Below are positions 24,422 through 62,279 of a DNA stretch of 64,000 nucleotides, one piece after another. Made by a program: the position numbers and the translations under genes. The number at the start of each line of letters is the position of its first letter. Within the stretch, counting starts at the first letter, position 1. This DNA comes from Tubulanus polymorphus (Eukaryota > Animalia > Nemertea), in NCBI RefSeq assembly GCF_964204645.1, contig NC_134028.1, forward strand, positions 13,585,653 through 13,649,652, given 5' to 3'. The notes under the pieces are model-generated. The model had not been told where the DNA came from and did not search any database. It saw only the letters and a list, made by a program, of their open reading frames with translations.

Positions 24422-24507
24422 ATAAAAAATAAAAATAATGAATATCTAGAATTCAAAATGACCTTAATCGTTTTATTAACAACTACAATCATACAGTCAA
24501 ACATCTG

Positions 24508-24756: not shown

Positions 24757-24788
24757 TTATATAACAAAAAAATTAGTTGTGATGTTGC

Positions 24789-25032: not shown

Positions 25033-25038
25033 TTGAAT

Positions 25039-26776: not shown

Positions 26777-26806
26777 TTATATATCCTTAATTTTAACTTT
26801 ATATTT

Positions 26807-28054
26807 CTAATATTGAATACTATCTAATTGTGAATTTACAATATTTAATTGCGCGTCAGATATAATATAAATGTGCATTTTGAAATTTTTGTCCCCTCTT
26901 TTCTTCGCCATGAATAATTGTATTCCATCTTTAGTGTTTTGTAGTTTTTTTCCAGAACCATGTAATGAATTATCCTCTGTTGTTCTAAAATCTAACCATA
27001 ATGCATATTTATTGCCGGTATAATAATCAATTTGATTAATATTACAATTTTCAAATGATTTTACTTTTTCATTCATAAAATGTTTTCTAATTTCTGGCCA
27101 CTGATCTATCATTCTCATTCCTTGGCAAAATATTTTATTTGCTATTCCTTCGATAGTTATTTCTACTTTTGTTATTTCAGGATTATAATAATTATCAACA
27201 TTTATTGTGCCATTAGTATATGTTGCAATGGTAAAAAATATTAATATGCCTTTAATAGATCTTCTTGGGAAGTTAATATTCTCATTAATTATTTCATCAT
27301 TTGCATTAATAGTTATGGTTTTAAATTTATCAATATAATCATATAATAATGAAAATCCTTGATTGTATTGAGTTTGAATTATACTTGAAATATTTTCATC
27401 AGTTACTGTATCATATTCTAAACATATATTCGATAATTTATAACTCATATCTTTAACAACGCTAGATAATACAATTTCATTTACAGGAGCAAATGTTATT
27501 TCGAATATAACATCTTCTTGAATTGCGTATTTATATAAAGGTGCATTATTATTTATCAATTCAAAATCTAATGGAATTTTATATTTGCTTCCATATATAC
27601 TTTTTATCAATTTATCTACAGCATTAGTTAATATTGCGCTATTAGCTTCTGATCTTAATTTATTTTGGTTTTCTGATTGGATGCCTTGAAATATCATATT
27701 ATTTCTATTTTCTTTAGTTAACCATAAATCTTTATAACGCATAAATAAATTATAATCATCTAATGAGAAAACTGTTTCCGGACCAATCTTTATTGTTAAC
27801 TTTTTAATCAAATATCTTCCAACATTATCAACAACATAATTATTATTATAACCGATTAATTTTATATCAGCTTATAAATAAATACTATTTGGAACATAAA
27901 AAGTATTTTTTGTTAATCGAGGGATTCTAACATATAAAGTTTCATTGGGATTAATATTTGAAGGGTTATTAGTAATTATATGATGTGATCTTTCTGCTTT
28001 AATAGCATTAGATATTCTAGAAATCTTAGAAGGACTTATATAACTCCCACTCAT
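26807..28054 (-). pseudogene. Major capsid protein (probable double jelly-roll, ~415 codons) with one in-frame stop
   Basis: ORFs 27872-28054 and 26807-27811 are in frame; TAA replaces the TCA seen in the copy at 46558. The size, position next to the integrase and beta-rich pattern fit a Polinton MCP (family call from recall, not from a search). Confidence 0.75.
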
Positions 28055-28075
28055 TTATTTAACAAAAAAAATTAA

Positions 28076-29539
28076 TTATTTATTTTTTATTATTTTTTCT
28101 TGATATCTTTTTGATATCATATTTACTGACCCAAAAATAATAGCACTTACAACTGTAATTAAAAATAAAATAATATGTTCAGCAGCAAAGTTAATAATGT
28201 TTCCTGCAGATTTCAATATAAAACCAACAATTGATGCAATAATTCCTGGTAAAGCTGCAGCAGATTTTTTAAATAGTTCCCATAAATATTTTGCTAATTT
28301 CTTTAAACCATCTTTAACTTTATCTTGTATAGAATTATTACCTGGGGGTTTATCTGGTTTATTGGGAGTGGGAGTAGGAGTAGATTTTAAAGCATTTGAT
28401 ATTGCTAAACCAATTGTTGTAAATAACATAGTTACAGCTGTTAGAATTGAAAGAATTGTTATTCCTTCTAACTTAAATAATAATCTTATTCTGTCTTTTA
28501 ATGATATTTCAGAATCTGGTTTAATCAACAAATCTTTAAAAATAACTTTTAATCTATTAATATTATAATCATATGATTTTAATAATGATTTAATTTCTTC
28601 TTTTTGTAATTCTATGTTATATTCTAAATCATTTTTTTCTTTTTCTAAACGTAATTCTTTTTGCCTATATTCTATTTCATCAATTGCTTGACGATCTAAA
28701 TCAGACTTTAATTGTTCTATTTCTTTATTTTTATCAGTTAATTCTTTTTCTAAAGTTCTAATTTTAAAATCTCTTATACTTTTATCATGCGCAATTTTAT
28801 CAGATGCAAGTCTTATACTAATAATTTCTCTAATTGCTTTATCAGAAAATATATTTAAATCTTCTAATTGTTGATCTGTTGCATCAAGTAATCCATTCGG
28901 TAAAAGTTTTTCAGTTTGAACTTCTCTTGAATTAGGTTTACTAGTTTTGGAATTAATAACTTCTTTAGGAATTTTTTTTTGTCTTAAATTTTCATTAATT
29001 ATCTTAAAAAATTTAGCATTTCTTTGTTTAAATTCTTTTATATTATCATCTCTTTCTTCTTGTGTAACATCAGTTATAACATCATTAATGATTTTCTTAA
29101 TTCTATCTGGTTTAAATAAATTAAAAGTTGATTGTGTTATTATTTTATCGTTACTTTTGAGATTTGAAATCTTAAAATAATAGTCGCCTTTCAATTTCCA
29201 ATGATAATCACCATTAAAATATTTCAAATCTTTTACTAAATAATTCATACCTTTATTTGTTTTATTGAAACCAGATCTTTTTAAAATTGGTTTAAATTCA
29301 TGAATAATTTCTTTATATTCGTATTCTTTTTCTGTTATTTCTTGTACTTCATTTTCAATACTTATCTTTGAACGTGTTTTATCAATATATTCAGGTGTAT
29401 TTAAATTAGAATTATATGCTGTTTCATTACCATCATTAAAACTTGTTTCATTAAAATCAGGTTGTGGTTCATCATCAATATATCCTTCATTATTAATTCC
29501 CATGCCTTCCAATGGAAAACCTTCTCCACCTTCTGCCAT
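28076..29539 (-). CDS. Coiled-coil protein with C-terminal hydrophobic/TM segments (487 aa)
   Basis: Heptad-rich middle; hydrophobic GITILSILTAVTMLFTTIGLAI and IILFLITVVSAIIFG; conserved in three copies. Confidence 0.8.
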   Translation of the reverse strand: MAEGGEGFPLEGMGINNEGYIDDEPQPDFNETSFNDGNETAYNSNLNTPEYIDKTRSKISIENEVQEITEKEYEYKEIIHEFKPILKRSGFNKTNKGMNYLVKDLKYFNGDYHWKLKGDYYFKISNLKSNDKIITQSTFNLFKPDRIKKIINDVITDVTQEERDDNIKEFKQRNAKFFKIINENLRQKKIPKEVINSKTSKPNSREVQTEKLLPNGLLDATDQQLEDLNIFSDKAIREIISIRLASDKIAHDKSIRDFKIRTLEKELTDKNKEIEQLKSDLDRQAIDEIEYRQKELRLEKEKNDLEYNIELQKEEIKSLLKSYDYNINRLKVIFKDLLIKPDSEISLKDRIRLLFKLEGITILSILTAVTMLFTTIGLAISNALKSTPTPTPNKPDKPPGNNSIQDKVKDGLKKLAKYLWELFKKSAAALPGIIASIVGFILKSAGNIINFAAEHIILFLITVVSAIIFGSVNMISKRYQEKIIKNK

Positions 29540-29555
29540 TTACATAATACAAAAA

Positions 29556-30972
29556 TTAAAATTTAAAATATAATATTCCTCCTATAACAATTCCTATACA
29601 AGTTATAGCTAATTTAGTATTTTCATGGGATTTATTATCATCATTTAGTTTAATTATTTCATGTTGAATATTATCAGTTTTAATATCACCGTGTGGGTGC
29701 CGTACGGCACCATTTTCTGATGTATTGTATTCTTTTATTTTAGAATCATTATTTAATTTAATATTATTAGTTTTAGTTTCTGTTGATTGAATACGTTTTT
29801 TATTTTTTTCACCTTCCATTAATTTTGGAGCAGTGATAATCTTTTTATTTATATCATTCAATCCAAATGAATTATTTATTGTTGCAGTTTTTAATTAGAT
29901 TATTATAACCAATTATGTTTCCCATCTTTAATACTAAATCATTAGAAATAATTAATAGATTAGGGCCTATACAATAATTCAGCCTCAGATGAAATTTATC
30001 TAAATAATTTTGATATCTTATAATGTTTTCTGGAATCGATCTATTTTTATCATTATGAATTGAATCTTCAAATAAAACTTTAAATTGTTTCTGTGTATCA
30101 AATGATGTATTCAAATTTCCAATTATCGGTGATCTTGTTTCAACTTGTGATCCTAGAATACAAATCAAATAAGTTCTAATAGATTGATTTATTCTTTCTA
30201 TACCTGATTTAGTAAAACCTTCACTATTTTCTAAAATGAAATAAACCCAACCATTATTGTTTTCTTGTTTTAAATGATCATAAAATTTCGGTAATTTTTT
30301 GAAATTTAATGTTTCTAAATCCTTAGTTTCTATTTTACCATAACCTAATTTATTATTATAGATATTATAAAAGCTATTAGATGGTATGGGAAGTGCACAA
30401 TATTCTGCAATCTTTTTAGGGCAAGGAAGTGATCTTATTGTTCCAATTTTTGTTCTAAAATCAGAATTATTTATATCTATATTAAATTCATTGCAAATTT
30501 TATAAAACTTAGATAAATTAATATTATTATCTAATTCTTTAAAATATCTAGATCCTGGTAAAGCGCACTCTAATTCATTTAATATTATTCTGATTTGAAA
30601 GTATGTATGAAATCTAAACAAACTTTGAATTAATTTATATTTAGAATTATTCAAATGATCATTCCAACTAATTCCACATCCTGTTGTTGCACAATAAACA
30701 GCAAAATTTAATTGGTTCTGCCAATACTTCATATTAGATTTTAATAACCATTGTTTTTCATCTTTCAATTTTTTAAAATTAATTAAATATACATAAAATA
30801 TATTTTCCATCTTTGCATTAAAATTATTAGTTTCAGTAACATAAATTTCTAAATTAGTTAATGAATCTAAAACTTCATTTCTATATGTAATATCTTTATT
30901 AAAATCTATTGCTGGAATATTATATTTAATTGATTTATTATATTGGAAAGCTTTTGGAAAACTATCAACCAT
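29556..30972 (-). pseudogene. Conserved Polinton protein with C-terminal TM anchor, one frameshift
   Basis: The 366-aa and 101-aa ORFs are bridged in the other two copies; extra A in AAAAACTG near 29890; motif YWQNQLNFAVYCATTGCGIS. Confidence 0.75.
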
Positions 30973-30988
30973 TTATATAATTAAAAAA

Positions 30989-31423
30989 TTAATAATTTAT
31001 TAATTCTTTTAATAATTTATCTTGTTCCTCAACTGTTATATGACCATTTAAACTTATTATATAATCTAGTGTGTTCTTTAATTTATTAATTTCTTTTATA
31101 TTATTTTTAATTTTTTCTTTATTACTTTTTATATTTAATTTTGAACTTATACCGGTTAAAACACTTGAACTTAATCCTAACACACCAATTGATATAGCTA
31201 AAGGTGTTAATGGACTGAATATTGCAAGAAATGTTATTACAGAACTAATTGTAACCGAACCACTGATAATAAGATAATATATAATTTTACTTTTTAGATA
31301 TTTTTTCTTTTTACTTTTTAAGTCACTTTCAAATTCTAATATTTGTTTTTCTAAATATATTTTTAATTTAGTTTTATTTATATCATGAGGAATAATATCA
31401 ATACTATCGACTTTATCTTCCAT
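30989..31423 (-). CDS. Small two-TM protein flanked by coiled coils (144 aa)
   Basis: Hydrophobic hairpin; homologs at 43166, 61555-61974 and ~62890-63107. Confidence 0.8.
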   Translation of the reverse strand: MEDKVDSIDIIPHDINKTKLKIYLEKQILEFESDLKSKKKKYLKSKIIYYLIISGSVTISSVITFLAIFSPLTPLAISIGVLGLSSSVLTGISSKLNIKSNKEKIKNNIKEINKLKNTLDYIISLNGHITVEEQDKLLKELINY

Positions 31424-31442
31424 TTATTTAGAAAAAAAATTA

Positions 31443-31865
31443 CTAATTAGTAAACTTATATGCTACAAATATAACAATAACAGTTCCACCTAAAATCCAT
31501 ATTATTTCATATTTCTTCTGTTCATTACTTGGGGTATAATAATCTGATAATTTAGGTTTGTATAGATGTAATTTTTCTTTATTTGTTACTGCGTTATATA
31601 AACTCATTGCATCATCAACTGATTGAAAATCTCTGTGTGAAATCTTCTGATCATATAATTCTTTGTTAATATAATCCATATAGTTTTGCCTCTTTTCTCT
31701 ATATTCTTCTGCTGCTTTATTGTATTTCTCTAATGCTAAGTTATGTCTTCTTTGTTCTCCTAATGAACTATTTTTATCAATATGTTTAAATAAATAACCA
31801 CCACCAGTAAATGCTAAAGCGTTAACAATTGCTGATCCTATAATAGTTATAATTGCAGAAACCAT
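31443..31865 (-). CDS. Small Polinton membrane protein (140 aa)
   Basis: Hydrophobic N- and C-termini; homolog at 42727. Confidence 0.8.
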   Translation of the reverse strand: MVSAIITIIGSAIVNALAFTGGGYLFKHIDKNSSLGEQRRHNLALEKYNKAAEEYREKRQNYMDYINKELYDQKISHRDFQSVDDAMSLYNAVTNKEKLHLYKPKLSDYYTPSNEQKKYEIIWILGGTVIVIFVAYKFTN

Positions 31866-31890
31866 TTATTTAGCAAATAAAATTATGCAT

Positions 31891-32112
31891 TTATATGGGA
31901 GGAATATATTTTTGTTTTTCCAAATAATCAATAGTTAAATTAGATAAAGTAACTGCTAATGTTAATTTTAAAATATCATTTATATCAAATCTATCAACAT
32001 TAACACTTCCCATTTTAAATACTTTTTTTAATACCATTGAATAACCAACAGTTCCAACTGATAGTAATGCTCCATTATATAATCCAGTTATTATCCACTT
32101 ATTATCACTCAT
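31891..32112 (-). CDS. Small hydrophobic protein (73 aa)
   Basis: Nearly identical ORF at 42481-42702. Confidence 0.75.
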   Translation of the reverse strand: MSDNKWIITGLYNGALLSVGTVGYSMVLKKVFKMGSVNVDRFDINDILKLTLAVTLSNLTIDYLEKQKYIPPI

Positions 32113-32454
32113 TTATTTATCAAAAAAATTACTATCATCAAAATATTTAGTTAACTTATTTATGATTATTTCAACATTTATTTCATTACTAGTTTTATGA
32201 TTATCATATATTTTGGATAATATGTTTTTGATATCATCAATAATTCCATCTTCATTTAATTCATAATATTCTAATGGTGATTTAATTAAATCAATTACTT
32301 TTTCTATATTATAATTTTCTTTATCAATCATTGATGCATTGTTAAATGATTTACTTTTTATATCAGTAATTACATCATTTAATTTAATTATCATTTCTTT
32401 ACCATGTTTAAAATCAAACCCAAAACATATACTCGGTCCAACAGTTATATTCAT
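32113..32454 (-). CDS. Hypothetical protein (113 aa)
   Basis: Homolog at 42124-42480 with conserved ends and a divergent middle. Confidence 0.7.
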   Translation of the reverse strand: MNITVGPSICFGFDFKHGKEMIIKLNDVITDIKSKSFNNASMIDKENYNIEKVIDLIKSPLEYYELNEDGIIDDIKNILSKIYDNHKTSNEINVEIIINKLTKYFDDSNFFDK

Positions 32455-32471
32455 TTATATAGTGAAAAAAA

Positions 32472-33233
32472 TTACTCTCTACATCTTATAACTAATTCAT
32501 AAATTACAGGGAAATTATTTAAATCAATTAAGTATCCATTATGATTTCTAATTTCTAATCTAAAATTATTAAAACGAGGAATGCATGGTTTGAAATCACA
32601 TTCTGTTAATTTATAATTTATTTGCGTTTCAAATTCTTTAACATTCTTCAATGGTAAAATGTTTAGTAAACCAGAATTACAAGTTATATCTTTAGTTGCT
32701 TCGAATGTTTTTGTAGGATCGATTAAATTGCAATAAATATAAAAATGTGTGTAAGGTATTAAGTTTGGTGTAGTAGCGTCAATATTTGTAAAAGATCTAT
32801 CTGGAAGAATTCCTAACAGTTTAGCTATAGGTTTTTTTACCATAAATTTATGTTTTTCACTATTAGACAACCTTATCTTTATTCTATCAGAACTCTCACT
32901 TTTTAAAAATCTAATACTAAACCCAGAACTACTACCTAATTTGTGCCAGGCTTTTCTATTAATTTCTTGTGGCAATGTATCTAAATTATATAACCCTGTT
33001 TTTAAATATATATAGACCCATTCATTTTTATTTTTATTAAAAATTAAAAAAGCTCTATGTTCAATAGTTTTATCCGATATATTGTAAAATGAGTAACATA
33101 AACTTATATTAACTAATTTTAAATCTACACAATTCTTAAATTCTCTATCTAATTGAACTATTAAATTATGAGATTTATAATTTGTAAGCCTTCTAGAATC
33201 AACAAATATTCTGTATTGTTTTAATTCTACCAT
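32472..33233 (-). CDS. Probable minor capsid protein (penton)
   Basis: IFVDSR near the N-terminus, YSFYNIS, and C-terminal IRNHNGYLIDLNNFPVIYELVI resemble Polinton/virophage-type pentons. Confidence 0.6.
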   Translation of the reverse strand: MVELKQYRIFVDSRRLTNYKSHNLIVQLDREFKNCVDLKLVNISLCYSFYNISDKTIEHRAFLIFNKNKNEWVYIYLKTGLYNLDTLPQEINRKAWHKLGSSSGFSIRFLKSESSDRIKIRLSNSEKHKFMVKKPIAKLLGILPDRSFTNIDATTPNLIPYTHFYIYCNLIDPTKTFEATKDITCNSGLLNILPLKNVKEFETQINYKLTECDFKPCIPRFNNFRLEIRNHNGYLIDLNNFPVIYELVIRCRE

Positions 33234-35366
33234 TATTTATAACATAAAAAAATTACCATCATCACTAAAAATTAATTTTAATAAAATTTTTCCTAAATAA
33301 ATGGATGAGAAGATAGCATGCGAAATTTGTGGTGAACTTTTAAGAAAAAGTAATATGGCTCGACATATGAAAAAACATGATGAAAATTATAAACCCCCTA
33401 AAATAAACTGCCCAAAATGTAATAAATTATTCTCAAGAAATTATGTTAAAAAACATTCAGAGAAGTGTAGAATTAATGGCGCAACGGCTTATGTTGATAG
33501 TAACGAAAGTAATAGTAATTCTGTTGAAGTTGAACCTGAAATTATTTGGAAAAGACCTTTCTTATTCTATGACAAGGATGGTGTATTAGGTGATAGATAT
33601 TTCAATGTAAATGATAACCCTGAATATAAGTTATTATATATGGATGCAAATAATTTGTATGGTTGGGCAATGATGGAACCACAACCTTATGCAGTATTTG
33701 AAATAACTGAAGTTTCGCAACATGAAAATAATGATAAATTTGATTGGAAGAAAAGAATCCTAGATATTGCAGATGATTCAGATACTGGTTACTTCTTTGT
33801 TGTAGATTTAGAATATCCTGAACATATTAAATTTAAATCTAGAAATCTAGCATACTGTCCAGAACATAAAACTGTAACTCATGAAGAATTATCAAATTAT
33901 CAAAAAAGAATTAAACCTGAAAATCATATTCATACAGAAAAGTTAATGGTAACTCAAGAAGATAAATATAATTATGTAGTACATTATAGAATGTTAAAGT
34001 TTTATCTAAAACAAGGAATGATCCTAAAAAAAGTACATAGTTATATTTCATTTAGTCAATCTAAGTGGTTAGAAAATTATATAGATCTTAACACCAAACA
34101 CAGAACTGAAGCTAAAAACTGATTTTGAGAAAGATTTCTTCAAACTAATGAACAATGCATTCTATGGTAAGACTTGTGAAAATATTAGAAATAGAAATGA
34201 TATTGAGTTAGTTAGTAATGGTAAAAGGATAAGGCATTTACAATCATATCCTAAGTTTTTAGGTAACAGAATATTTGATGAAAATTTAGCTGCAGTTAAA
34301 ATGAGAAGAACTTCTATGAAATTTAATAAACCAATTTATGTTGGAGCATCAGTTTTAGAAATATCAAAATTACTAATGTATGAATTCTATTATAATGTAT
34401 TACAACCACTTTTTGGAGAAAAACATATAGAAATCTTATATTTTGATTCTGTAACAGCCGACACCCCAATATTTTTAAAATATAATAATCACATGTTAAT
34501 TAGAAGAATTTCAGAAATAATTCCAAAACAAAATGAACTTTATATTTCGTATGGTGAAAAAGAATTAATACAAATAAATGGATTAATGGATGTTTGGACA
34601 AAAAATGGATGGGTGAAATTAAAGAATATAATTAGACATAAAACGAATAAGAAAATCTATAGAGTTAGAACTAAATTAGGATTTGTTGATGTTACTGAAG
34701 ATCATAGTTTAATTAAATGGTGATGAAATAAAACCAACTGATATAAAAATTGGAGATGAATTATTACATACAAGATTTTACCCAAGAATGAATCATATGT
34801 CATTTGATAAAATAATTGATAATATTTATAATATACAACCCGAAACATTGGAAGAAAAAGAATATTTTATCAAAGGATTTTTTATGGGTGATGGTTCAGC
34901 AGGTGTTTATAAATATGTTAGTGGAACTAAATATTGTTGGTATTTATGCAATCAAGATTTGAAATTATTAGAACGAATTAAAAAATACTGTGAACAAGTT
35001 TATCCAAATAAAACATTTAAAATCCTAGATTTTATGAAATCATCAGCAATTTATAGAATACATGTAACTAATACTAAAGATTTTGCAATTAAATATAATG
35101 ATGAATTCTATATTCATGCAATAGTGAAAAGTAATACTTCAACTAAAGAAAAGATAGTTCCAGATTATGTAATAAGTGCAAAATATGATTTAAGAAAATG
35201 GTTCTTCATTGGATTTTATGCTGCAGATGGTTCAAAAAACTATACAAAACAGGAAACTATATGAGACGAGAAGATACACAATATCCGTGTAAGAAGATAA
35301 CAAGAGAAATCCCACAATAAGTTCAGCCAAAACGAGAAACTTGAATAGAAGAGTTATATATATTTG

Positions 35367-35406
35367 CGCAACGTTTCGGCTAAAGACTATTAGCCATCAT
35401 CAGGCG
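35367..35406 (-). ncRNA. Hammerhead ribozyme, inverted copy
   Basis: Reverse complement of 40082-40121. Confidence 0.8.
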
Positions 35407-35725
35407 TACTGAGTACAGGAGAATATTACAAGATATTTATACAAGACCAAAACAATAGAAGCAGAGTGAGTGATTAAAATATTGAAAGGGGAATAGATTA
35501 AAGTAATGACATAACAACTAGAAAACAATGCTAAAGTAAGCAAGGCAAACTAGGGGCAATGTAGATTAAAGTAATTAATAAACAAAGACACAAGCTAAAG
35601 TGATTAAAACGGGAGGACAAGCTAAGGGGTAATCAAATAAAACAAAGAGAAGGAACATGAAAGGCGATAATCAGAGAGTGAGTGGAAACAAGCAAACTAT
35701 GATAAAGGCAAAACAATGAAGGGAA

Positions 35726-37315
35726 TTAGTATAACGGGGGTACAAGAGAAGCGAGAAATTTGGAGATCAAAATGTTGTGGGGGGAAAAACCGTTATTCAA
35801 ATTAACACAATTTTCCAAGTTTTCAATAATCAGGGCCGATTCCATAATGTGTCGTTTAATCTTTTCTGAACAGGGGAAAATTATGGAGGCATTTTCAAAA
35901 TCAAAATTGTGGCTGGTTTCGTATACGTGATTAGCAACACCGCTTTCAGGCTTAAAATTCTTTACATCATTCTTATGTTCACGAATGCGCTTGTGTAAAT
36001 CGCGTCCGGTTTCGCCGATATATATTTTGTTACAAACTTTACAGGGAATTTTATATACACCAATGTTCAGGGGTTCAATTTTGGGGGAGTTATGAGTAAG
36101 ATTACGACTAAGTTTGTTGTTATAAGTAAAAATGAGTTGTTTGTTTAAGAGATGGAGGGGAGTTTTAGATTTTTCCAGAAAAGGAACAAAAGGTACAATA
36201 ATAGGCTGTTTACGCGCGCGGGTCCCTTGAGAGCGACTGAAATGTGAACGACGGGCTCTCAAGAGAGCTTTATTCAAAATGTCGTCGGGGTAAGCTAATT
36301 TATTAAGAGAGGTCTTGATCTGGGTTAGTTCATCATCCAAGAAAAGGGGGTCACAAATCCTTAATGCGCGAAGGAATAAGCTTTGGGCAACACTAAGTTT
36401 AATGTTATGAGCGGTGAAGGAGAAATAATGTAGGTATGTTCCAGAGTGGGTAGGTTTCCTATAAACCGAGAATTTTAGACAAGACAAACAATTGTGTATA
36501 CAAACATCAAGGAAAGGGATTTTCCCATCAACTTCCAATTCAAATGTGAAGTTCAAGGAGGGATAAAAAGAGTTAATAAATGTGAGAAATTGATCAATAT
36601 CAAAGTCAAAAGGTATAAGGGCAAGAATATCATCAACGTATCGTAACCAAAGTCTAGGGAGAGTATCTGTGTAAAGAGGTAGTAATTCGGTTTCAACGTG
36701 TTCCAGGAAAAGATTTGCTAGAATGGGACTAAGCGGGTTCCCCATAGCCATGCCAAAAACCTGTTCGAAATATGAATTGTTGAAACTAAAAAAGGAGTTC
36801 TGGGTGCAAAGTTCAATTAATTCGATAATACAATCAGTAGGAATGTCAAAATTGAAATCCAACGAAGGAAGTTTCCGTTTAAGAAAATCAAGGGTAGGCC
36901 TAAGAGGAACATTGGTAAAAAGAGAACTAGCATCAAACGAAATGAATCTATCGTTACCAGGAATAATGTTTTTTAACCGTTCTAATAAATCTTGGTTGTG
37001 TCGTAAATGCGAGGCGGAGAAAGAACCAAGAGCCGGTGATAATTGTTTAGCCAGAAATTTGGATAAACGATAAGAGGGCGAATTACAATTAGATACAATG
37101 GGGCGCAGCGGAACATCTTTCTTATGGATTTTGGGGAGCCCATAGATATAAGGTAGGGAGGGTAGACGTGATTGAAATTTCGAAAGAATATCTTTAGAGT
37201 CCGGAAACCGTTGGATAATACCAGACAGATTCTTATTGAATGAAGCTTGCATACGTGAGAGAGGGTTGGATTTCAATGGTTTATAAACATTAGAGTCATC
37301 GAGAAGGGAGAACAT
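35726..37315 (-). CDS. Penelope RT + GIY-YIG endonuclease, 5'-truncated inverted copy
   Basis: YGLPKIHK, GMAMGNPLSP, LRYVDD, GVYKIPC...YIGETGR. Confidence 0.9.
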   Translation of the reverse strand: MFSLLDDSNVYKPLKSNPLSRMQASFNKNLSGIIQRFPDSKDILSKFQSRLPSLPYIYGLPKIHKKDVPLRPIVSNCNSPSYRLSKFLAKQLSPALGSFSASHLRHNQDLLERLKNIIPGNDRFISFDASSLFTNVPLRPTLDFLKRKLPSLDFNFDIPTDCIIELIELCTQNSFFSFNNSYFEQVFGMAMGNPLSPILANLFLEHVETELLPLYTDTLPRLWLRYVDDILALIPFDFDIDQFLTFINSFYPSLNFTFELEVDGKIPFLDVCIHNCLSCLKFSVYRKPTHSGTYLHYFSFTAHNIKLSVAQSLFLRALRICDPLFLDDELTQIKTSLNKLAYPDDILNKALLRARRSHFSRSQGTRARKQPIIVPFVPFLEKSKTPLHLLNKQLIFTYNNKLSRNLTHNSPKIEPLNIGVYKIPCKVCNKIYIGETGRDLHKRIREHKNDVKNFKPESGVANHVYETSHNFDFENASIIFPCSEKIKRHIMESALIIENLENCVNLNNGFSPHNILISKFLASLVPPLY

Positions 37316-37839
37316 TTTTTGATTATAATCACAGATATCTAAGAGAACAATTTTGCCACCTTTATCAGCTTTTGAAATACGAACAGAGTCTAGTTCAATT
37401 CTTCTTTATAACCTTTCCACATCTCATCTCTTGCTTTCGGACTTATGAAAAGCGGTACATCCAAGCGAAAACAGCAAAAACCAAAGTGAAATTTCTGCAA
37501 GACTGCCTCAGCGAAAAGGTGATTCCTCGCTCCATGAACTGGATCAAGAAATTCGATTCGCATTCACCATTTCCGAAGCAAGTAAATTCTCATCTAAGAT
37601 CAGCGATCGGCAAAGCTAAAGATGATTGCGATTATCAATTCTTCAGATCTCGGCAAGCGCACAATTACCTCAGATCTCAACTTCCGGACCCGCATCTCTT
37701 CAACTTACTCAGCTCTATCGTTATGGACTCCGGTAACCGTCATTTTTCATTTTTCTGACAATTCTTGTAAACTTATTCGAAACTTCAACAGCTCATTATT
37801 CTTAGTCCTTGGACTAAGTTTAGCAACACGGACATTATT

Positions 37840-39762
37840 GTGAATCTCTCCTCCGTTTCGCTCACGTTGTATCAACTTCAACTCCTTGGCTTCGGTTTGA
37901 ACTTTTCTTTACCTCACCGCAAGACGAACATCCTGGATTTTATGTCGGAATTAGAACAGCGTAAGACATCTTCCTCGAATTTTGACTACAATTTTATGTT
38001 TATGAACTTACAAACTATTTGTGATAACCTCCGTTATAATTACTCAGAATTTTTACCTCGTCGTTTCAGGATTGCCCTCTCTGAACTCAGAAAACTAGAC
38101 TCTGTTCGTGTTTCAAAAGCTGATAAAGGTGGCAAAATTGTTCTCTTAGATATCTGTGATTATAATCAAAAAATGTTCTCCCTTCTCGGTGACTCTAATG
38201 TTTATAAACCATTGAAATCCAACCCTCTCTCACGTATGCAAGCTTCATTCAATAACAATCTGTCTGGTATTATCCAACGGTTTCCGGACTCTAAAGATAT
38301 TCTTTCGAAATTTCAATCACGTCTACCCTCCCTACCTTATATCTATGGGCTCCCCAAAATCCATAAGAAAGATGTTCCGCTGCGCCCCATTGTATCTAAT
38401 TGTAATTCGCCCTCTTATCGTTTATCCAAATTTCTGGCTAAACAATTATCACCGGCTCTTGGTTCTTTCTCCGCCTCGCATTTACGACACAACCAAGATT
38501 TATTAGAACGGTTAAAAAACATTATTCCTGGTAACGATAGATTCATTTCGTTTGATGCTAGTTCTCTTTTTACCAATGTTCCTCTTAGGCCTACCCTTGA
38601 TTTTCTTAAACGGAAACTTCCTTCGTTGGATTTCAATTTTGACATTCCTACTGATTGTATTATCGAATTAATTGAACTTTGCACCCAGAACTCCTTTTTT
38701 AGTTTCAACAATTCATATTTCGAACAGGTTTTTGGCATGGCTATGGGGAACCCGCTTAGTCCCATTCTAGCAAATCTTTTCCTGGAACACGTTGAAACCG
38801 AATTACTACCTCTTTACACAGATACTCTCCCTAAACTTTGGTTACGATACGTTGATGATATTCTTGCCCTTATACCTTTTTACTTTGATATTGATCAATT
38901 TCTCACATTTATTAACTCTTTTTATCCCTCCTTGAACTTCACATTTGAATTGGAAGTTGATGGGAAAATCCCTTTCCTTGATGTTTGTATACACAATTGT
39001 TTGTCTTGTCTAAAATTCTCGGTTTATAGGAAACCTACCCACTCTGGAACATACCTACATTATTTCTCCTTCACCGCTCATAACATTAAACTTAGTGTTG
39101 CCCAAAGCTTATTCCTTCGCGCATTAAGGATTTGTGACCCCCTTTTCTTGGATGATGAACTAACCCAGATCAAGACCTCTCTTAATAAATTAGCTTACCC
39201 CGACGACATTTTGAATAAAGCTCTCTTGAGAGCCCGTCGTTCACATTTCAGTCGCTCTCAAGGGACCCGCGCGCGTAAACAGCCTATTATTGTACCTTTT
39301 GTTCCTTTTCTGGAAAAATCTAAAACTCCCCTCCATCTCTTAAACAAACAACTCATTTTTACTTATAACAACAAACTTAGTCGTAATCTTACTCATAACT
39401 CCCCCAAAATTGAACCCCTGAACATTGGTGTATATAAAATTCCCTGTAAAGTTTGTAACAAAATATATATCGGCGAAACCGGACGCGATTTACACAAGCG
39501 CATTCGTGAACATAAGAATGATGTAAAGAATTTTAAGCCTGAAAGCGGTGTTGCTAATCACGTATACGAAACCAGCCACAATTTTGATTTTGAAAATGCC
39601 TCCATAATTTTCCCCTGTTCAGAAAAGATTAAACGACACATTATGGAATCGGCCCTGATTATTGAAAACTTGGAAAATTGTGTTAATTTGAATAACGGTT
39701 TTTCCCCCCACAACATTTTGATCTCCAAATTTCTCGCTTCTCTTGTACCCCCGTTATACTAA
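37840..39762 (+). CDS. Penelope RT + GIY-YIG endonuclease; the N-terminal part at ~37396-37840 is disrupted
   Basis: KADKG, RT motifs with YVDD, C-terminal GIY-YIG with CxxC. Confidence 0.95.
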   Translation: MNLSSVSLTLYQLQLLGFGLNFSLPHRKTNILDFMSELEQRKTSSSNFDYNFMFMNLQTICDNLRYNYSEFLPRRFRIALSELRKLDSVRVSKADKGGKIVLLDICDYNQKMFSLLGDSNVYKPLKSNPLSRMQASFNNNLSGIIQRFPDSKDILSKFQSRLPSLPYIYGLPKIHKKDVPLRPIVSNCNSPSYRLSKFLAKQLSPALGSFSASHLRHNQDLLERLKNIIPGNDRFISFDASSLFTNVPLRPTLDFLKRKLPSLDFNFDIPTDCIIELIELCTQNSFFSFNNSYFEQVFGMAMGNPLSPILANLFLEHVETELLPLYTDTLPKLWLRYVDDILALIPFYFDIDQFLTFINSFYPSLNFTFELEVDGKIPFLDVCIHNCLSCLKFSVYRKPTHSGTYLHYFSFTAHNIKLSVAQSLFLRALRICDPLFLDDELTQIKTSLNKLAYPDDILNKALLRARRSHFSRSQGTRARKQPIIVPFVPFLEKSKTPLHLLNKQLIFTYNNKLSRNLTHNSPKIEPLNIGVYKIPCKVCNKIYIGETGRDLHKRIREHKNDVKNFKPESGVANHVYETSHNFDFENASIIFPCSEKIKRHIMESALIIENLENCVNLNNGFSPHNILISKFLASLVPPLY

Positions 39763-40081
39763 TTCCCTTCATTGTTTTGCCTTTATCATAGTTTGCTTGT
39801 TTCCACTCACTCTCTGATTATCGCCTTTCATGTTCCTTCTCTTTGTTTTATTTGATTACCCCTTAGCTTGTCCTCCCGTTTTAATCACTTTAGCTTGTGT
39901 CTTTGTTTATTAATTACTTTAATCTACATTGCCCCTAGTTTGCCTTGCTTACTTTAGCATTGTTTTCTAGTTGTTATGTCATTACTTTAATCTATTCCCC
40001 TTTCAATATTTTAATCACTCACTCTGCTTCTATTGTTTTGGTCTTGAATAAATATCTTGTAATATTCTCCTGTACTCAGTA

Positions 40082-40121
40082 CGCCTGATGATGGCTAATA
40101 GTCTTTAGCCGAAACGTTGCG
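40082..40121 (+). ncRNA. Minimal type I hammerhead ribozyme in the Penelope 3' region
   Basis: CGC-CTGATGA-T-GGCTAA-TAGTCT-TTAGCC-GAAACGTT-GCG: conserved core, stem II and short stem I. Confidence 0.8.
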
Positions 40122-41002
40122 CAAATATATATAACTCTTCTATTCAAGTTTCTCGTTTTGGCTGAACTTATTGTGGGATTTCTCTTGTTAGGAAACTATA
40201 TCTTTGGCACAAAAAGGAAAAGCTGCTATATCAGGATTAAATATATTATGCAATTCATTAGGATTTAATATGTTAGTTAATATTAGAAAAGATAAACCAA
40301 ATTTATTTCAATTAACGCATGTAGAAAATGAACTAACTGAAGAAGCTAGAGATTTATTTGAAATATCCAATCCTACAGAATATGTTTATGATTTAACAAC
40401 TGAAGATGGTACATTTAATTGTGGATTTCCATTAATCATAAAAAATACAGATTCTTACATATTAAAGATAAAAACTAATAACATAACTGATGATTTAAAA
40501 ACATTGAAACATCATTTTGATTTCAGTAACTATCCTAAAGATCATGAATTGTTTAGCAATGATAATAAAAAAGTTCCCGGTAAATTCAAAGATGAATTAG
40601 GTGGTGAAGAAATGATTGAATTCATAGGTATTAGATCTAAAATGTATTCATATAAAACTAGAACATGAAGCTAAAAAGTTAAAAGGAATAACCAAAAGTG
40701 TAGTAGAAAAGAATATTCATTTCAAAGATTACATCAATTGTATATTCAATGAAGAAGTTAGAAAACATAAGATGAAATGTTAAATCTGAAGATCATGAAA
40801 TGTTCATTGAAGAAATTGAAAAGATTAGTCTAAACCGATTTGATGATAAAAGATATATTTTAGATGATGGAATTCATACAGTTGCTTATGGCTGCAATTT
40901 AGATGAATACTTAAAATTTAAAAGAGAAGAAACAAAAGAGAACGAGATAATGCAAAGAATTCGAACGTGTTAATCAAATCTTAATAAAAATATGTATTAT
41001 AA

Positions 41003-41356
41003 ATGGAGAGTAAACAAACACACAGTGAGAACAACAAATTATTTCTAGATAGAATAAAAGATACTTCAAATGTTAATTCAGTAGATTATAAATTTAAGAA
41101 GTTAAAAGAATTAATAATCCATAAGAAATATCTAATTACAAATATTGATACAGTTACTAACAAATATGGAGATAAATTAGTAATACACTTAGAATATGAA
41201 GGATTAAAAGGAAATACATATAAATTCAGAACATATTTACCAGATAGATTTCATAGATTATCAAGTGAAGATTTAGAAGAATTATGTTCTGGAGATTTCT
41301 ATTTCATATACAAAGGTAAGAATGAAAAAGGGCACCACGAAAAAGATTTCGAATAA
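41003..41356 (+). CDS. Small Polinton protein (117 aa), function unknown
   Basis: Intact ORF after pPolB; relatives at 24097, 52769 and a start fragment at ~46887-46918. Confidence 0.75.
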   Translation: MESKQTHSENNKLFLDRIKDTSNVNSVDYKFKKLKELIIHKKYLITNIDTVTNKYGDKLVIHLEYEGLKGNTYKFRTYLPDRFHRLSSEDLEELCSGDFYFIYKGKNEKGHHEKDFE

Positions 41357-41370
41357 AATATGTAAAATAA

Positions 41371-42107
41371 ATGGTAGAATTAAAAGAATACAGAATATTT
41401 GTTGATTCTAGAAAACTTACAAATTATAAATCACATAATTTACGAGTACAATTAGATAGAGAATTTAAGAATTGTGTAGAAGTTTATGTAACTCATTTTA
41501 CAATATATCGAATAAAACTATTGAAGATAATATTTTTTTAATTCATATTAGAAATGTAAATAAATGGTTTCATCTAATTTTAAAACCAGGATTATATAAT
41601 TCAGAAACATTAGCTCAAGAAATTAATAGAAGAGCACGGTTGAAAATTAGAAGTGAAGATAAATTTATAATTAGATTTATAAAAAGTGATAGCACAAATA
41701 AAATTAAAATAAAGTTACATGATGAAAGTCAACATGCATTTATGGTAAAAAACCTATAGCTAAACTGTTAGGAATTGTACCAGATGCTGTTACAGGAAAC
41801 GTAGATGGTAATTCAAATTTAATGACTTTTACGCACTTTTATATTTATTGCAATTTAGTTGATCCTACAAACATTTGAAGCATCTAAAGATACAATTTGT
41901 AATTCTAGTATATTAAATATTTTACCATTAAAAAATGTTAAACAATTTGGAACGCAAATAAATTATAATTTAACTGAATGTGATTTTAAACCTTGTATTC
42001 CTCAATTTAACAATTTTAAGTTAGAAGTAAGAAATCACAATGGATACTTAATTGATTTGAATAACTTTCCTGTAATTTATGAATTAGTTATAAGATGTAG
42101 AGAGTAA
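41371..42107 (+). pseudogene. Second, divergent penton-like gene, frameshifted
   Basis: Same N- and C-terminal sequence as 32472-33233, split over several frames. Confidence 0.75.
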
Positions 42108-42123
42108 TTTTTTCACTATATAA

Positions 42124-42480
42124 ATGAATATAACTGCTGGACCGAGTATATGTTTTGGATTTGATTTTAAACGTGAGAAAGAAATGAAATTTAACATTAC
42201 TGATGTAATTATACATATTAAAGATATTGCATTTTCTAATGAAACAACATTTGAGTATGAAAAAACAATAGTTAAAGAAACTTTAAATGTAGAAAAGATT
42301 ACTAATTTAATTAGAAAATCTTTAAGATTTTATGAATTAGATGAAGATTTTATCATTGATGATATTAAAAGAATAATAACTGAAATATATGAAAATGAAA
42401 CTAATAATACTATAAATGTTGAAATAATTATAACGAAGATAAGTGAATATTTTGAAGATAGTAATTTTTTTGATAAATAA
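42124..42480 (+). CDS. Homolog of 32113-32454
   Basis: MNITAGPSICFGFDFK...SNFFDK. Confidence 0.7.
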   Translation: MNITAGPSICFGFDFKREKEMKFNITDVIIHIKDIAFSNETTFEYEKTIVKETLNVEKITNLIRKSLRFYELDEDFIIDDIKRIITEIYENETNNTINVEIIITKISEYFEDSNFFDK

Positions 42481-42702
42481 ATGAGTGATAATAAGTGGAT
42501 AATAACTGGATTATATAATGAAGCATTACTATCAGTTGGAACTGTTGGTTATTCAATGGTATTAAAAAAAGTATTCAAAATGGGAAGTGTTAATGTTGAT
42601 AGATTTGATATAAATGATATTTTAAAATTAACATTAGCAGTTACTTTATCTAATTTAACTATTGTTTATTTAGAAAAACAAAAATATATTCCTCCCATAT
42701 AA
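42481..42702 (+). CDS. Homolog of 31891-32112
   Basis: Differs by two amino acids. Confidence 0.75.
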   Translation: MSDNKWIITGLYNEALLSVGTVGYSMVLKKVFKMGSVNVDRFDINDILKLTLAVTLSNLTIVYLEKQKYIPPI

Positions 42703-42726
42703 ATACATAATTATTTTACTAAATAA

Positions 42727-43145
42727 ATGGCCTCTGCAGTTGTAACTATTATAGGATCGGCAATTGTTAACGCTTTAGCATTTACTGGTGGCGGTTATTT
42801 ATTTAAGCATATTGATCAAAATGGATCATTTGCAGAACAGAAAAGACATAACTTAGCATTAGAGAAATACAATAAAGCAGCAGAAGAATATAGAGAAAAG
42901 AGACAAAACTATATGGATTATATTAACAAAGAATTATAGGATCAGAAGATTTCACATAGAGATTTTCAATCAGTTGATGATGCAATGAGTTTAACGCGGT
43001 AACCAATAAAGAAACATTACATCTATACAAACCTAAATTATCAGATTATTATACCCCAAGTAATGAACAGAAGAAATATGAAATAATATGGAATTTAGGT
43101 GGAACTGTTATTGTTATATTTGTAGCGTATAGATTTACTAATTAG
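42727..43145 (+). pseudogene. Homolog of 31443-31865 with premature stop
   Basis: TAT to TAG at ~42937, plus a downstream indel. Confidence 0.8.
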
Positions 43146-43165
43146 TAATTTTTTTTGCTAAATAA

Positions 43166-43591
43166 ATGGATGATAATATTGATATTATTCCTCATGATAT
43201 AAATAAAACTAAATTAAAAATATATTTAGAAAAACAAATATTAGAATTTGAAAGTGATTTTAAGATAAAAAAGAAAAAATATTTAAAAAGTAAAATTATA
43301 TATTATCTTATTATTAGTGGTTCGGTTACAATTAGTTCTGTAATAACTTTTTTAGCAATATTCAGTCCATTAACACCTTTAGCTATATCAATTGGTGTGT
43401 TAGGATTAAGTTCAAGTTTTATAACTGGTATAAGTTCAAAATTAAATATAAAAAGTAATAAAGAAAAAATTAAAACTAATATAAAAGAAATTAATAAATT
43501 AAAAAATACACTTGATCATATAATAAGTTTAAATGGCCATATAACAGTTGAAGAACGAGATAAATTATTAAAAGGATTAGTTAATTATTAA
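43166..43591 (+). CDS. Homolog of the two-TM protein 30989-31423
   Basis: Near-identical translation. Confidence 0.8.
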   Translation: MDDNIDIIPHDINKTKLKIYLEKQILEFESDFKIKKKKYLKSKIIYYLIISGSVTISSVITFLAIFSPLTPLAISIGVLGLSSSFITGISSKLNIKSNKEKIKTNIKEINKLKNTLDHIISLNGHITVEERDKLLKGLVNY

Positions 43592-43607
43592 TTTTCTAAT
43601 TATATAA

Positions 43608-44924
43608 ATGGGGTTTCCAAAAGCTTTCCAATATAATAAATCAATTAAATATAATATTCCAGCAATAGATTTTAATAAAGATATTTCATATAGATATGAA
43701 GTTTTAAATTCATTAATTGATTTATATATTTATGTTACTGAAAGTAATAATTTTCATGTAAAGATGGAAAATATATTTCATGTGTAAACAATTAATTTTA
43801 AAAATTTAAATGAGGCAAAACAATGGTTATTAAAAACTAATATGAAGTATTGGCAGAACCAATTTAATTTTGCTGTTGCGCTACAACAGGATGTGGAATT
43901 AGTTGGAATGATCATTTAAATAAACCAAGTTTACTATTGATGTTATCACGTTTTAGATTTCATACTTATTTTCAAATAAAATTAATATTAGATGAATTAG
44001 AATGTCCTTTACCAGGTTCCAAATATTTTAAAGAATTGAATATTAATATTAATTTTTCTAAGTTTTATAAAATATGTAATAATTTTAATATTAATTCAAA
44101 TAATGATTTTAGAGCAAAAATTGGTACAATGGGTGGATTAGGAATATTATATACTAAAGAATTTGGAAAAATAATGACAAATTCAGATATTAGAACACTA
44201 AATTGGAATGAATTAACAAAATATTATAATAATATACAACAACAAAACAATAATGGTTGGGTTAATTTCATTTTAGAAAATAGTGAAGGTTTTACAAAAT
44301 CAGGTATACAAAGAATAAATCAATCAATTAGAACTAATTTGATATGTATTTTAGGTGCGCAAGTTGAAACAAGATCCCCAATAGTTGGAAATGATAACAC
44401 TTCATTTGATGCGCAGAAACAATTCAAAGTATTATTTGAAGATTCAATTCATAATGATAAAAATAGATCGATTCCGGAAAACATTGTAAGATATCAAAAT
44501 TATTTAGATAAATCACATATTAGATTAAATTATTGTATAGGCCCCAATCTATTTAGTATTTCTAATGATTTAGTATTAAAGATGGGAAACATAATTGGTT
44601 ACAATAATCTAATTAAAACTGCCACAATTAATAATTCATTTGGATTAAATGATATAAATAAAAATATCATAACTGCTCCAAAATTAATGGAAGGTGAAAA
44701 AAATAAAAAAACACATTCAATCAACAGAAACTAAAACTAATAATATTAAATTAAATAATGATTCTAAAATAAAAGATTACAATACATCAGAAGATATAAA
44801 AACTGATAATATTCAACATGAAATAATTAAACTAAATGATGATAATAAATCCCATGAAAATACTAAATTAGCTATAACTTGTATAGGAATTGTAATCGGA
44901 GGAATATTATATTTTAAATTTTAA
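43608..44924 (+). pseudogene. Homolog of 29556-30972, disrupted
   Basis: Fragments 43937-44734 and 44694-44924 match copy 1. Confidence 0.8.
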
Positions 44925-44939
44925 TTTTTTATTATGTAA

Positions 44940-46537
44940 ATGGCAGAAGGTGGAGAAGATTATGAAATGGAAAACATGGAAAATAATAATGAAGGATATA
45001 TTGATGATGAACCGCAACCCAATTTAAATGAAACTAATATTGATGATGATAATTCATCAGCATATAATTCTAATTTAGCAGATAGTGGTTCTAAAGCCCC
45101 ATCAACAGAGGAATATATTAGAAAAACTAGATCGAGAATAAAACCTGAAAATAAAAATCAAGGTTTATCAAGACAAGATTTAGAAAATAATGAATTTATG
45201 TATAAATTCAAACCTGTATTTAAAGATTCTGGATATAATATAAATGACAGAGGCGCCAGACTTTTAGTAAAAGTATTAAAGTTTTTAGATGGTGAATATT
45301 TTTATCGTTTGAAAGATGATTATTATATTAATATCTCTTATAAAAATCAAGATAAAATATTAGCGGAATCAACTTTGGAAAAATTAGAACCAGATAGAAT
45401 TAAAAAAATAAGCATTAATAATGAAATAGAAAATGTAACACAAGAAGAAATAAATCACTATAAAAATAAAAAAGTATCTAAACAAAGAATTAATGAATTA
45501 TTTGAAACAATCGATAAAAATTCAGAACCAGAAATGGAAGAGGATGGAGATCGATTAGATAAATTAAGATCGTCAACACCCGAAACATCGAGAAGAGATA
45601 TTCAACCAATTGATAATGATTCAAGTCAATTACAATTAGGAAAACGTTTAGATAACTTACTGGATACAATGAATTCATTTGAAGAAGAGATGAATAGTGT
45701 TTTAGATACACCCGGTACTGAAACTGGAATAAATCGAATACAACATCTATTAGAAAAAGGATTACTTGATTTAACTGATGATGAATTCGAAGCATTTCCT
45801 GAACAAGCACGTAGAGAAATTAAAGGTATGCAAGAATCAGCTGGTGAAATTGCTAATATTAAGATGAGATTTTCTAAAATAACCATGTTAAAAAAAAAAA
45901 ATTAACTAATGCAAATGAAGAATTAAAACAATTAGAATTAAATAGAGATCATCAATTAATCGAGGAAGCTGATTATGAAAGAAGAAAGTTAGCTTTAGAA
46001 AAAGAAATTGATGATTTAAAATATAACAAAGAATTACAGGAAAAAGAAAGAGATACATTATTAAAATCATATGATCTTAATCATATTTACAAATTATAAG
46101 TTATTTTTAAAGATTTGTTGATAAAACCAGATTCTAAAATATCACTAAAAGATAGAATAAAATTATTATTTAAGTTTGAAGGAATAACAATTCTTTCAAT
46201 TCTAACAGCTGTAACTATGTTATTTACAACAATTGGTTTAGCTATATCACATGCTTTAAAATCTACTCCTACCCCCAATAAACCAGATAAACCCCCAGAT
46301 AATAATTCTATACAAGATAAAGTTAAAGATGGTTTAAAGAAATTAGCAAAATATTTATGGGAACTATCTAAAAAATCTGCTGCAGCATTGCCAGGAGTTA
46401 TTGCATCAATTGTTGGTTTTATATTGAAATCTGCAGGAAACATTATTAACTTTGCTGCTGAACATATTATTTTATTTTTAATTACAGTTGTAAGTGCAAT
46501 TATTTTTGGGTTAGTAAACATGATAAAAAATAAATAA
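44940..46537 (+). pseudogene. Homolog of the coiled-coil/TM protein, frameshifted
   Basis: MAEGGE start and matching C-terminal TM region; shift in the A-run near 45895. Confidence 0.8.
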
Positions 46538-46557
46538 TTAATTTTTTTGTTAAATAA

Positions 46558-46887
46558 ATGAGTGGGAGTTATATCAATCCTTCTAAGAATCATAGAATAT
46601 CTAATGCTATTAAAGCAGAAAGATCACATCATATAATTACTCATAACCCTTCAAATATTAATCCCGATGAAACTTTATTTGTTAGAATTCCTCGATTAAC
46701 ACAAAATACTATTTATGTTCCAAATAGTATTTATTTATCAGCCGATATAAAAGTAACTGGTAATAATAATAATTATGTTGTTGATAATGTTGGAAGATAT
46801 TTGATTAAAAAATTAACAATAAAGATTGGTCCAGAAACAGTTTTCTCATTAGATGATTATAATTTATTTATGCATTACAAAGATTTA
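46558..46887 (+). pseudogene. Truncated second major capsid gene
   Basis: First ~110 aa match 28054 downward, then an abrupt junction to terminal sequence. Confidence 0.8.
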
Positions 46888-46990
46888 TGAATTCACTGTG
46901 TATTTGTTTACTCTACATATTTTTTCATTAAAATTGATTTCATTGATATAATATTCATTTATATAATGTCCATATATATGAATATCATTA

Positions 46991-51873: not shown

Positions 51874-51945
51874 CTAAAAAAGTCGCTTTAATGAAAAAAC
51901 AAATTCAACTCATTTTAACATTTGCACGTCAAAAATTCTAAAGAC

Positions 51946-52175
51946 CTTAGGGATATTTTCATGATTAATATTTTCTGCAGTGAATAAACTTCGTATTTTC
52001 CATGTCCATGGCCCTAGTGCTCGGATGTATACGGACAGGGTCTTCTCGTGTGGACTAGATGTAAGTGTAAACGGGTGAAATTCTTGCTGTCCCTGATTTC
52101 CACAGGCTAGACGAATCCACTGTCCAGACAAGTAATCAAAATCGTGTGGTCGCTTGAACTCCAAATATGTCACGT
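51946..52175 (-). CDS. DUOX: Dual oxidase exon (FAD-binding domain)
   Basis: SGQWIRLAC...EFHPFTLTSSPHE...IRALGPWT; phase-1 acceptor matches the upstream exon. Confidence 0.92.
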
Positions 52176-52527
52176 CTTTAAAGTTTGAAAAAAGAATCGT
52201 TATAAGTGGGTGTTATCATATTGTGGAATCACGGAATCGGGGAATTTTCCAAAACCGAAATTTATTTTTCAAAATTAACATTAACCTGGTTCTTCCACGG
52301 GGCTGAACCTTGTCGGACAAGGCACCGGCACTGGGATGAAAAATATCCGCTGATACCGCTCTGGTTGCTGAAATCGTCCAGCATATCGCAATAGGGAGTG
52401 TTGCCTTCAGATGTTAGAACAGGAAACTATGGTGTGATCGTGGTATCATTCTTTCATAAGTTTGAGTGTACCAAGCAAAATTATTGTCATCATTGCTGTA
52501 TGGAAGTGAAACCTGGCCAGTCTACAA

Positions 52528-62107: not shown

Positions 62108-62279
62108 ACGATTATTATAAAAAACCTAAATTACCAGAAGATATGGAAAATATAAAAGAAACATTCACAAAAATATTAAGATATTATGTGGATAATAAAA
62201 TAATAGATTCAATTAATTATCAGGTATAAAACATCCCTTTTCAAAGAATACCCATCACAAATTGCAACAATAAATGGCA

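Follow-up and report, generated by a model that had tools for sequence, protein, structure and literature searches.

A motif-C intein with giant-virus kinship in a Polinton DNA polymerase of the nemertean Tubulanus polymorphus

Results

An intein splits the catalytic motif of a Polinton polymerase

The stretch analysed here (the window: 64,000 nucleotides of the nemertean Tubulanus polymorphus, assembly GCF_964204645.1, contig NC_134028.1, positions 13,585,653 to 13,649,652 of the forward strand; coordinates below count from its first letter) carries fragments of a Polinton, an integrated virus-like element, and among them the remains of a protein-primed DNA polymerase gene (pPolB) whose catalytic motif C is split by an intein. 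On the plus strand, the upstream part of the polymerase, or N-extein (33580..34447), retains motifs A and B and is recognised from reads and from identity (83% and 92%) to the intein-free polymerase P0040 (P numbers denote the polymerases compared here); the 5' part of the gene is missing, and a frameshift and a stop lie near 34110-34122. The intein starts with Ser1 at 34448, directly after YFD (YFD/SVTADTP, the slash marking the junction), and ends in IIKN at 40446. The C-extein (40447..40960, plus strand) then opens with Thr-Asp-Ser, the remainder of motif C, which is therefore split as YFD/S...KN/TDS. The C-extein is 86-88% identical to the intein-free P0040 and P0042 over 73 amino acids, contains frameshifts near 40660 and 40780, and coincides with a rise in read depth.

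The intein itself is in two parts, both on the plus strand. The N-terminal part (34448..35262) holds block A with Ser1, block B (TEDH, 34694-34705) and both LAGLIDADG motifs, GFFMGDG at 34875..34895 and GFYAADG at 35211..35231. It is identified by the intein N-terminal model TIGR01445 (34448-34711; 33.4 bits against a cut-off of 24.5, E 6.9e-8), by Pfam LAGLIDADG_3, which matches 34713-35261 barely over its cut-off (22.8 against 22.5), and by 60% identity of this latter segment to the intein of P0001. The C-terminal part (40202..40446) holds block F (YVYDL, seen as YVYDLTT) and block G with the final Lys-Asn; searched alone it matched no NCBIfam or Pfam model, and it is placed by alignment with P0001 and P0032, being 68% identical to P0001 when taken together with the downstream extein. 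The residues of a class 1 bifunctional intein (Ser1, TEDH, terminal Asn and Thr+1) are present in this copy and in five relatives, block B reads TKDH in P0041, and the penultimate residue is Lys, as in Mimivirus. A first-pass annotation, made from the letters of this stretch, had listed these motifs (YFD/SVTADTP, TEDH, the two LAGLIDADG motifs, YVYDLTT and IIKN/TDS) and read them as an intein in a Polinton pPolB; every one lies where it was placed, HINT and LAGLIDADG profiles match over cut-off, and the intein is genuine.

The copy in the window is nevertheless dead: a frameshift near 34712-34718 puts the intein out of frame, the polymerase is truncated on its 5' side at ~33580, and a Penelope-type retroelement pair in inverted orientation (35263..40201) sits inside the intein. 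The arms of this pair (35298-37395 and 38093-40190) are inverted and 99.7% identical, RVT_1 and GIY-YIG domains lie in an open reading frame (ORF) at 37771-39762, and a 12-bp target-site repeat flanks the insertion (35251-35262 and 40190-40201). The insertion is very young, and one ORF of 663 amino acids is still open. Reads were drawn from 12% of one raw DNA run under the same species label, with an 85% likeness cut-off; 186 of the 231 reads at the intein break differ from the window in length, so that most reads from other copies lack these breaks. A marine metagenome run contained only scattered pieces and was left out of the counts. Upstream of 33580, 532 reads continue into different sequence. 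There, the start of a zinc-finger ORF (33301..33579, plus strand; weak zf-C2H2 matches) is fused in frame to the truncated polymerase, and 150 reads diverge from the window after this fusion point at 33579.

The intein belongs to a rare family in Polinton polymerases

The same intein occurs in eight further Polinton polymerase lineages: it is in frame in P0001, P0032 (which stands for a cluster), P0033, P0034, P0041 and P0347, and partial in P0044 and P0197, although one P0044 locus (L006) contains the whole intein, with two stops. These relatives were classified by profile rather than by taxon, among the best 150 of 393 and the best 120 of 809 matches; the animal setting is that of the window locus. 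The window intein is closest to other Polinton inteins (65%, 49% and 48% identity; 63-65% to that of P0001), viral inteins reaching 42-43%. All seven full-length Polinton inteins retain the splicing residues and the acidic residues of both endonuclease motifs, those of the Polinton clade described below end in a block-G pattern of their own (GFPLI), and PF14528 is over cut-off in all six intact intein proteins, while PF14890 exceeds its cut-off in P0032 only and stays under it in four others. An AlphaFold model of the P0001 intein has a mean confidence (pLDDT) of 93, and its best Foldseek matches are the bifunctional inteins TliVMA, PI-PkoII, PI-PfuI and PI-SceI.

The family is rare. Only one of 80 fetched metagenome loci was filled; motif C could be parsed in 56, and 55 of these were empty. 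The polymerases closest to the window copy (P0040, P0042 and P0043, 79-92% identity) all lack the intein. No locus turned up in three viral-contig scans, nor in one of a metagenome that used P0001.

Filled and empty alleles coexist

The first-pass annotation had advised looking for intein-free alleles, and they exist. In the reads, 199 jump from 34447 straight to C-extein-like sequence and are empty alleles; the empty site is also that of P0040, P0042 and P0043. Median depth is 613 on the N-extein and drops to 229 on the intein, corresponding to ~37% filled copies. This ratio is rough, since intein and extein are not affected equally by the 85% cut-off. At the C-terminal junction, 140 reads depart from the window there and 197 about ten bases further, which suggests that there are two kinds of empty site.

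The P0032 cluster, of which 15 of 136 members were listed (three of them fragments), contains both states within one family: seven filled and five empty alleles are 98.4% identical overall, falling to 64% and 60% within 10 residues on either side of the site, where the empty alleles also differ from one another. This local divergence would fit target escape, or flanking sequence carried in with the intein.

Across Polintons the intein is spread patchily over its host polymerases. In an extein tree of 46 rows (108 empty polymerases having been thinned to 38), the eight filled rows are scattered and need seven changes, with no tighter clustering than in shuffles (198 of 500 were as low). P0347 is the extreme case, with an intein of the clade (43-49% identity) in a polymerase that is only 18-22% identical to the others.

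The Polinton inteins form a clade among inteins of RNA-primed polymerases

We extracted 283 full-length inteins, of which 214 occupy the motif-C site of RNA-primed polymerases and 51 two other sites of such polymerases. The one named RNA-primed host is Mimivirus (P0421), whose extracted intein boundaries equal the published ones. Sorted by best anchor, the 216 non-Polinton motif-C hosts comprise 95 closest to Mimivirus, 11 closest to anchors that match 8ywg best in the PDB, four T4-like, six Pol-delta-like and 100 without identification. We take 8ywg to be the African swine fever virus polymerase, whence the label asfarvirus-like, and the entries matched by the T4-like anchor to be RB69/T4 gp43.

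The window intein, at the same site as that of Mimivirus and with the same Ser1 and Lys-Asn end, is 43% identical to it, which bears out the kinship proposed at first pass. In an IQ-TREE phylogeny of 55 rows (hand-picked from 165, themselves thinned from the 283; no archaeal intein sequence was included and the bootstrap was not fully settled), eight of the nine Polinton inteins form a clade (100/99) on a long branch, inside a group of 44 rows (100/97) that includes Mimivirus. The clade thus lies among motif-C inteins of RNA-primed polymerases, namely those of Mimivirus, asfarvirus-like hosts and a few T4-like ones. Its sister group differs between trees and is not Mimivirus in IQ-TREE. An asfarvirus-like donor was considered, P0207/P0291 being sister in one FastTree (97), and dropped, as this grouping is absent from IQ-TREE. 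P0041 stands apart from the clade; two independent captures were considered and are not shown, as one origin for the nine together stands in an approximately unbiased (AU) test (p = 0.67). Among five Polintons, intein and polymerase identities correlate with r = 0.96, over 10 non-independent pairs.

A few carriers stand out for other reasons. In trees, the giant-virus-type motif-C inteins of the T4-like P0354, P0224, P0262 and P0282 fall next to inteins from Mimivirus-like hosts, a possible case of exchange between phages and giant viruses. A search of 50,697 GenBank phage records gave no match. P0002, which scores 593 bits against human Pol delta and may be cellular or viral, is a Pol-delta-like polymerase that also holds this intein. 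In addition, many viral PolBs have two related inteins, either one each in motifs B and C or a pair, 2 residues apart, within motif C (P0058, P0097, P0103, P0105, P0194, P0059 and others).

Polinton setting and host locus

The core gene set of a Polinton/Maverick (adintovirus-like) element is found around the polymerase. On the minus strand lie an A32-type ATPase (25039-25647; Pox_A32, E 2.6e-12) for packaging, an rve integrase with a chromo domain (25648-26823; rve, E 2.6e-10) and a major capsid protein (26807-27871), the latter with a weak match (Capsid_N, E 0.008). PF03175 matches P0001, P0032, P0160 and P0347, and does not match P0040. A gene cassette is present in three diverged copies (27160-33238, 41365-46889 and 57051-62108) that are 80-90% alike, the first two inverted around the polymerase: the cassette downstream of it (41365..46890, plus strand) is an inverted relative of 27723-33238 (83-85% DNA identity) and ends in the start of a capsid gene (weak Capsid_N). 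Terminal inverted repeats and a 6-bp target-site duplication were sought by self-comparison of the window, which showed rearranged fragments and no terminal repeats. This Polinton copy is a relic.

Exons of a dual oxidase (DUOX), satellite arrays and the Penelope elements on the same stretch point to an animal host. One DUOX exon (51910..52212, minus strand; FAD_binding_8 and Ferric_reduct) has Dual oxidase 1 as its best PDB match (E 1.4e-23, against 3.8e-8 for NOX5), and further exons lie near 51246-51521 and 63443-63922. The arrays consist of a 118-bp satellite that shows higher-order structure, together with a 67-bp array (1-15620, 22996-24015 and 16981-18493). An ORF of 261 amino acids in a DUOX intron (54214-54999), with Cys and His clusters and no Pfam match over cut-off, is probably a DNA-transposon remnant.

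TAAATG starts in this Polinton lineage

In the Polinton fragments (24400-33400, 40900-46900 and 56900-62200), 17 of 32 ORFs start with TAAATG, against 8% of all ATGs there (binomial p 4e-11) and none of the 15 host and Penelope ORFs; in three of the 17 the TAA is the stop of the upstream gene. Four close relatives (L001, L002, L003 and L005) have TAAATG at 11 of 13 ORF starts and more distant loci are near background, L006, the only filled locus among those fetched, offering one scorable ORF. TAAAT is a poxvirus transcription start element (PMC4542343), and Polinton-like hyperparasites of entomopoxviruses have been described (PMC11296320). The TAAATG starts suggest that this Polinton lineage is putatively wired for viral-type transcription. 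No sequence of a helper virus came to light, no search having been aimed at one. T5NT was also considered and discarded: its counts simply follow strand composition.

Discussion

The window thus contains a broken copy of a motif-C intein whose clade is specific to Polintons. We propose that the family goes back to an old capture, its source a giant-virus-type polymerase, and that homing from one Polinton copy to another maintains it, a reading to which we give a probability of about 0.7. A giant-virus-type source is likely because of the maximum-likelihood tree and the greater diversity among viral inteins, and the capture appears old because the divergence of the Polinton-specific clade tracks that of its host polymerases. 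That the intein spreads by cutting and converting sister copies is likely because filled and empty copies coexist, and the data fit an intein long resident in Polintons that has homed repeatedly from copy to copy. Splicing and cutting would follow from established intein chemistry. Where the copy is intact, Ser1 would act with the TxxH block, the terminal Asn and Thr+1 to splice out the insert and restore the D-T-D motif, in whose absence the polymerase could not function. The LAGLIDADG domain would cleave a sister or co-resident Polinton at its empty site; templated by the filled copy, repair would then convert that site. Unlike a single-copy animal gene, a multicopy element would offer a standing supply of empty targets within one nucleus. 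Alteration of the residues near the site may in turn let empty copies evade cutting.

Several observations weigh against this proposal. The fraction of filled copies depends on a rough depth ratio; the divergence around the site in the P0032 cluster could reflect flank imported with the intein rather than escape; and in five close relatives with empty sites, mismatches do not clearly peak at the site, the exception being one bin 30-45 nt downstream. The extein tree draws on a sample biased to relatives of P0001. Among the 55 rows, 41 are RNA-primed motif-C inteins, and a tree in which those of Polintons lie outside all of them is not rejected by an AU test (p = 0.17), so that the direction of transfer is favoured rather than shown. 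Moreover, the tight tracking of intein and extein identities would also be expected from one old gain followed by losses only. This last point is central to an alternative in which the intein was gained once in a Polinton ancestor and then descended vertically with repeated loss and little or no ongoing homing; the correlation (r = 0.96), the single origin that the AU test leaves standing (p = 0.67) and the rarity of the intein (one of 80 fetched loci) all agree with it. However, it has to accommodate an intein of the clade in the ~20%-identical polymerase of P0347, filled and empty alleles within 98%-identical families whose divergence peaks at the site, endonuclease motifs that are intact in every full-length member, and an intein lost precisely from 38 of the 46 rows of the extein tree, and we regard it as unlikely.

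Other origins appear much less probable. If the element of the window had recently received its intein straight from a giant virus during co-infection, that virus would be marked as its helper. Such an event would explain why site and termini are the same as in Mimivirus, and could draw on the asfarvirus-like sister group of one FastTree and on the TAAATG starts of this lineage; yet it is largely refuted by the Polinton clade, since the closest inteins are those of Polintons and not the viral ones, the clade sits on a long branch and diverges in step with its hosts, and IQ-TREE lacks the asfarvirus-like sister, which makes such a transfer very improbable. We give scarcely any credence to a source outside the NCLDV (nucleocytoplasmic large DNA viruses), such as a T4-like phage, a mirusvirus or a cellular Pol delta, or to movement from Polintons into large viruses. 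Four of the 216 non-Polinton motif-C hosts are indeed T4-like and six closest to the Pol-delta-like anchor, T4-like inteins score against a profile of the Polinton clade like the Mimivirus-like ones (336 against 337-359 bits), and the AU test (p = 0.17) leaves room for the reverse direction; but the T4-like inteins adjoin those of Mimivirus-like hosts in trees, the RNA-primed hosts are far more diverse and carry three insertion sites, and the GenBank phage records hold no match. Finally, the three jumbled Polinton fragments without recognisable terminal repeats could raise the suspicion of viral contamination or misassembly outside the animal genome, which is hardly tenable when the same contig also has exons of DUOX, satellite DNA and, inside the intein, a Penelope insertion flanked by its target-site repeat, and when a separate run under the same species label has the family at high depth.

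The first-pass annotation had proposed that the intein moved from an RNA-primed NCLDV PolB into this very polymerase during co-infection. Kinship to giant-virus PolB inteins stands; a transfer into the polymerase of the window is not supported, as the clade is old in Polintons, and the AU test and the T4-like carriers qualify the direction. As its counter-case it had set a widespread, vertically inherited Polinton clade unrelated to NCLDV inteins; separate intein and extein trees, built as it had advised, recovered a Polinton clade, yet one that is rare, patchy and NCLDV-related. Its further claim, that the intein independently backs a helper-virus link, is not supported: because the clade is old and Polinton-specific, with divergence that tracks the host polymerases, and because the trees single out no donor and the AU test does not fix the direction, the intein gives no support for a present helper link. 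The TAAATG starts, separately from the intein, hint at a helper virus. Joining both lines leads to a more speculative picture, which we consider possible, if doubtful: carried by multicopy Polintons, inteins would have made their way into animal nuclear genomes, for which the papers searched report none, and would act there as an intragenomic gene drive, in which filled copies cut and convert empty ones, empty copies escape by rewriting the vicinity of the motif and the intein hops across polymerases that are only ~20% alike; the first capture would have taken place in the factory of a helper virus, pox- or asfarvirus-like, whose late promoters this lineage still uses.

The intein is of a known kind in a new host class and setting. 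The Mimivirus PolB intein (R322, residues 1053-1403; Ogata et al., 2005, PMC549080) shares with it the motif-C site, Ser1, TEDH, two LAGLIDADG motifs, the Lys-Asn end, Thr+1 and a length of ~350 amino acids, and the same source gives 24% identity between the Mimivirus intein and its best archaeal match; its host, however, is an RNA-primed viral PolB, whereas that of the window intein is the protein-primed polymerase of an integrated multicopy Polinton. The archaeal and yeast bifunctional inteins found by Foldseek have a fold in common with the P0001 model (E 5e-18 to 5e-11) at 11-18% identity and in other hosts, and the split Pol intein of Neq (NEQ068) is a weak sequence match (E 0.38) at the same site. 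DNA polymerase is reported as the commonest host of viral inteins, with 67 inteins in Phycodnaviridae, Iridoviridae, Mimiviridae and unclassified viruses (Green et al., 2018, PMC5784728), and the main-text passages of that survey, as distinct from its supplements, place nuclear inteins in fungi and a few protists, besides chloroplasts and NCLDV, and mention neither animals nor transposons. Nuclease domains inside Polinton pPolBs have been ascribed to intein invasions in a passage of Krupovic et al. (2024, PMC11071308); the paper cited there has HNH and VSR only. Such HNH and VSR domains are those of Jeong et al. (2023, PMC10748475), where the terms intein, LAGLIDADG and homing are all absent, whereas the insert in the window is complete in its splicing blocks and interrupts the catalytic motif. 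We found no description of a splicing-type intein in a Polinton polymerase in the literature consulted, including the relevant parts of PMC12220804, PMC11131425, PMC8502044 and bioRxiv 10.64898/2026.10.13.758929, a search that left supplements, InBase, Repbase and subscription journals aside, where a prior annotation is possible.

The population evidence fits homing, and the locus thereby offers a natural, testable system in which homing and target escape could be followed among dozens of co-resident copies. It extends inteins to protein-primed polymerases and, by way of an integrated virus-like element, to animal chromosomes, an extension of which we found no prior report. It also bears witness to gene flow between Polintons and large DNA viruses, at the sole motif that their very different polymerases have in common, and it points to a possible reason why an intein would survive in an animal only within multicopy elements.

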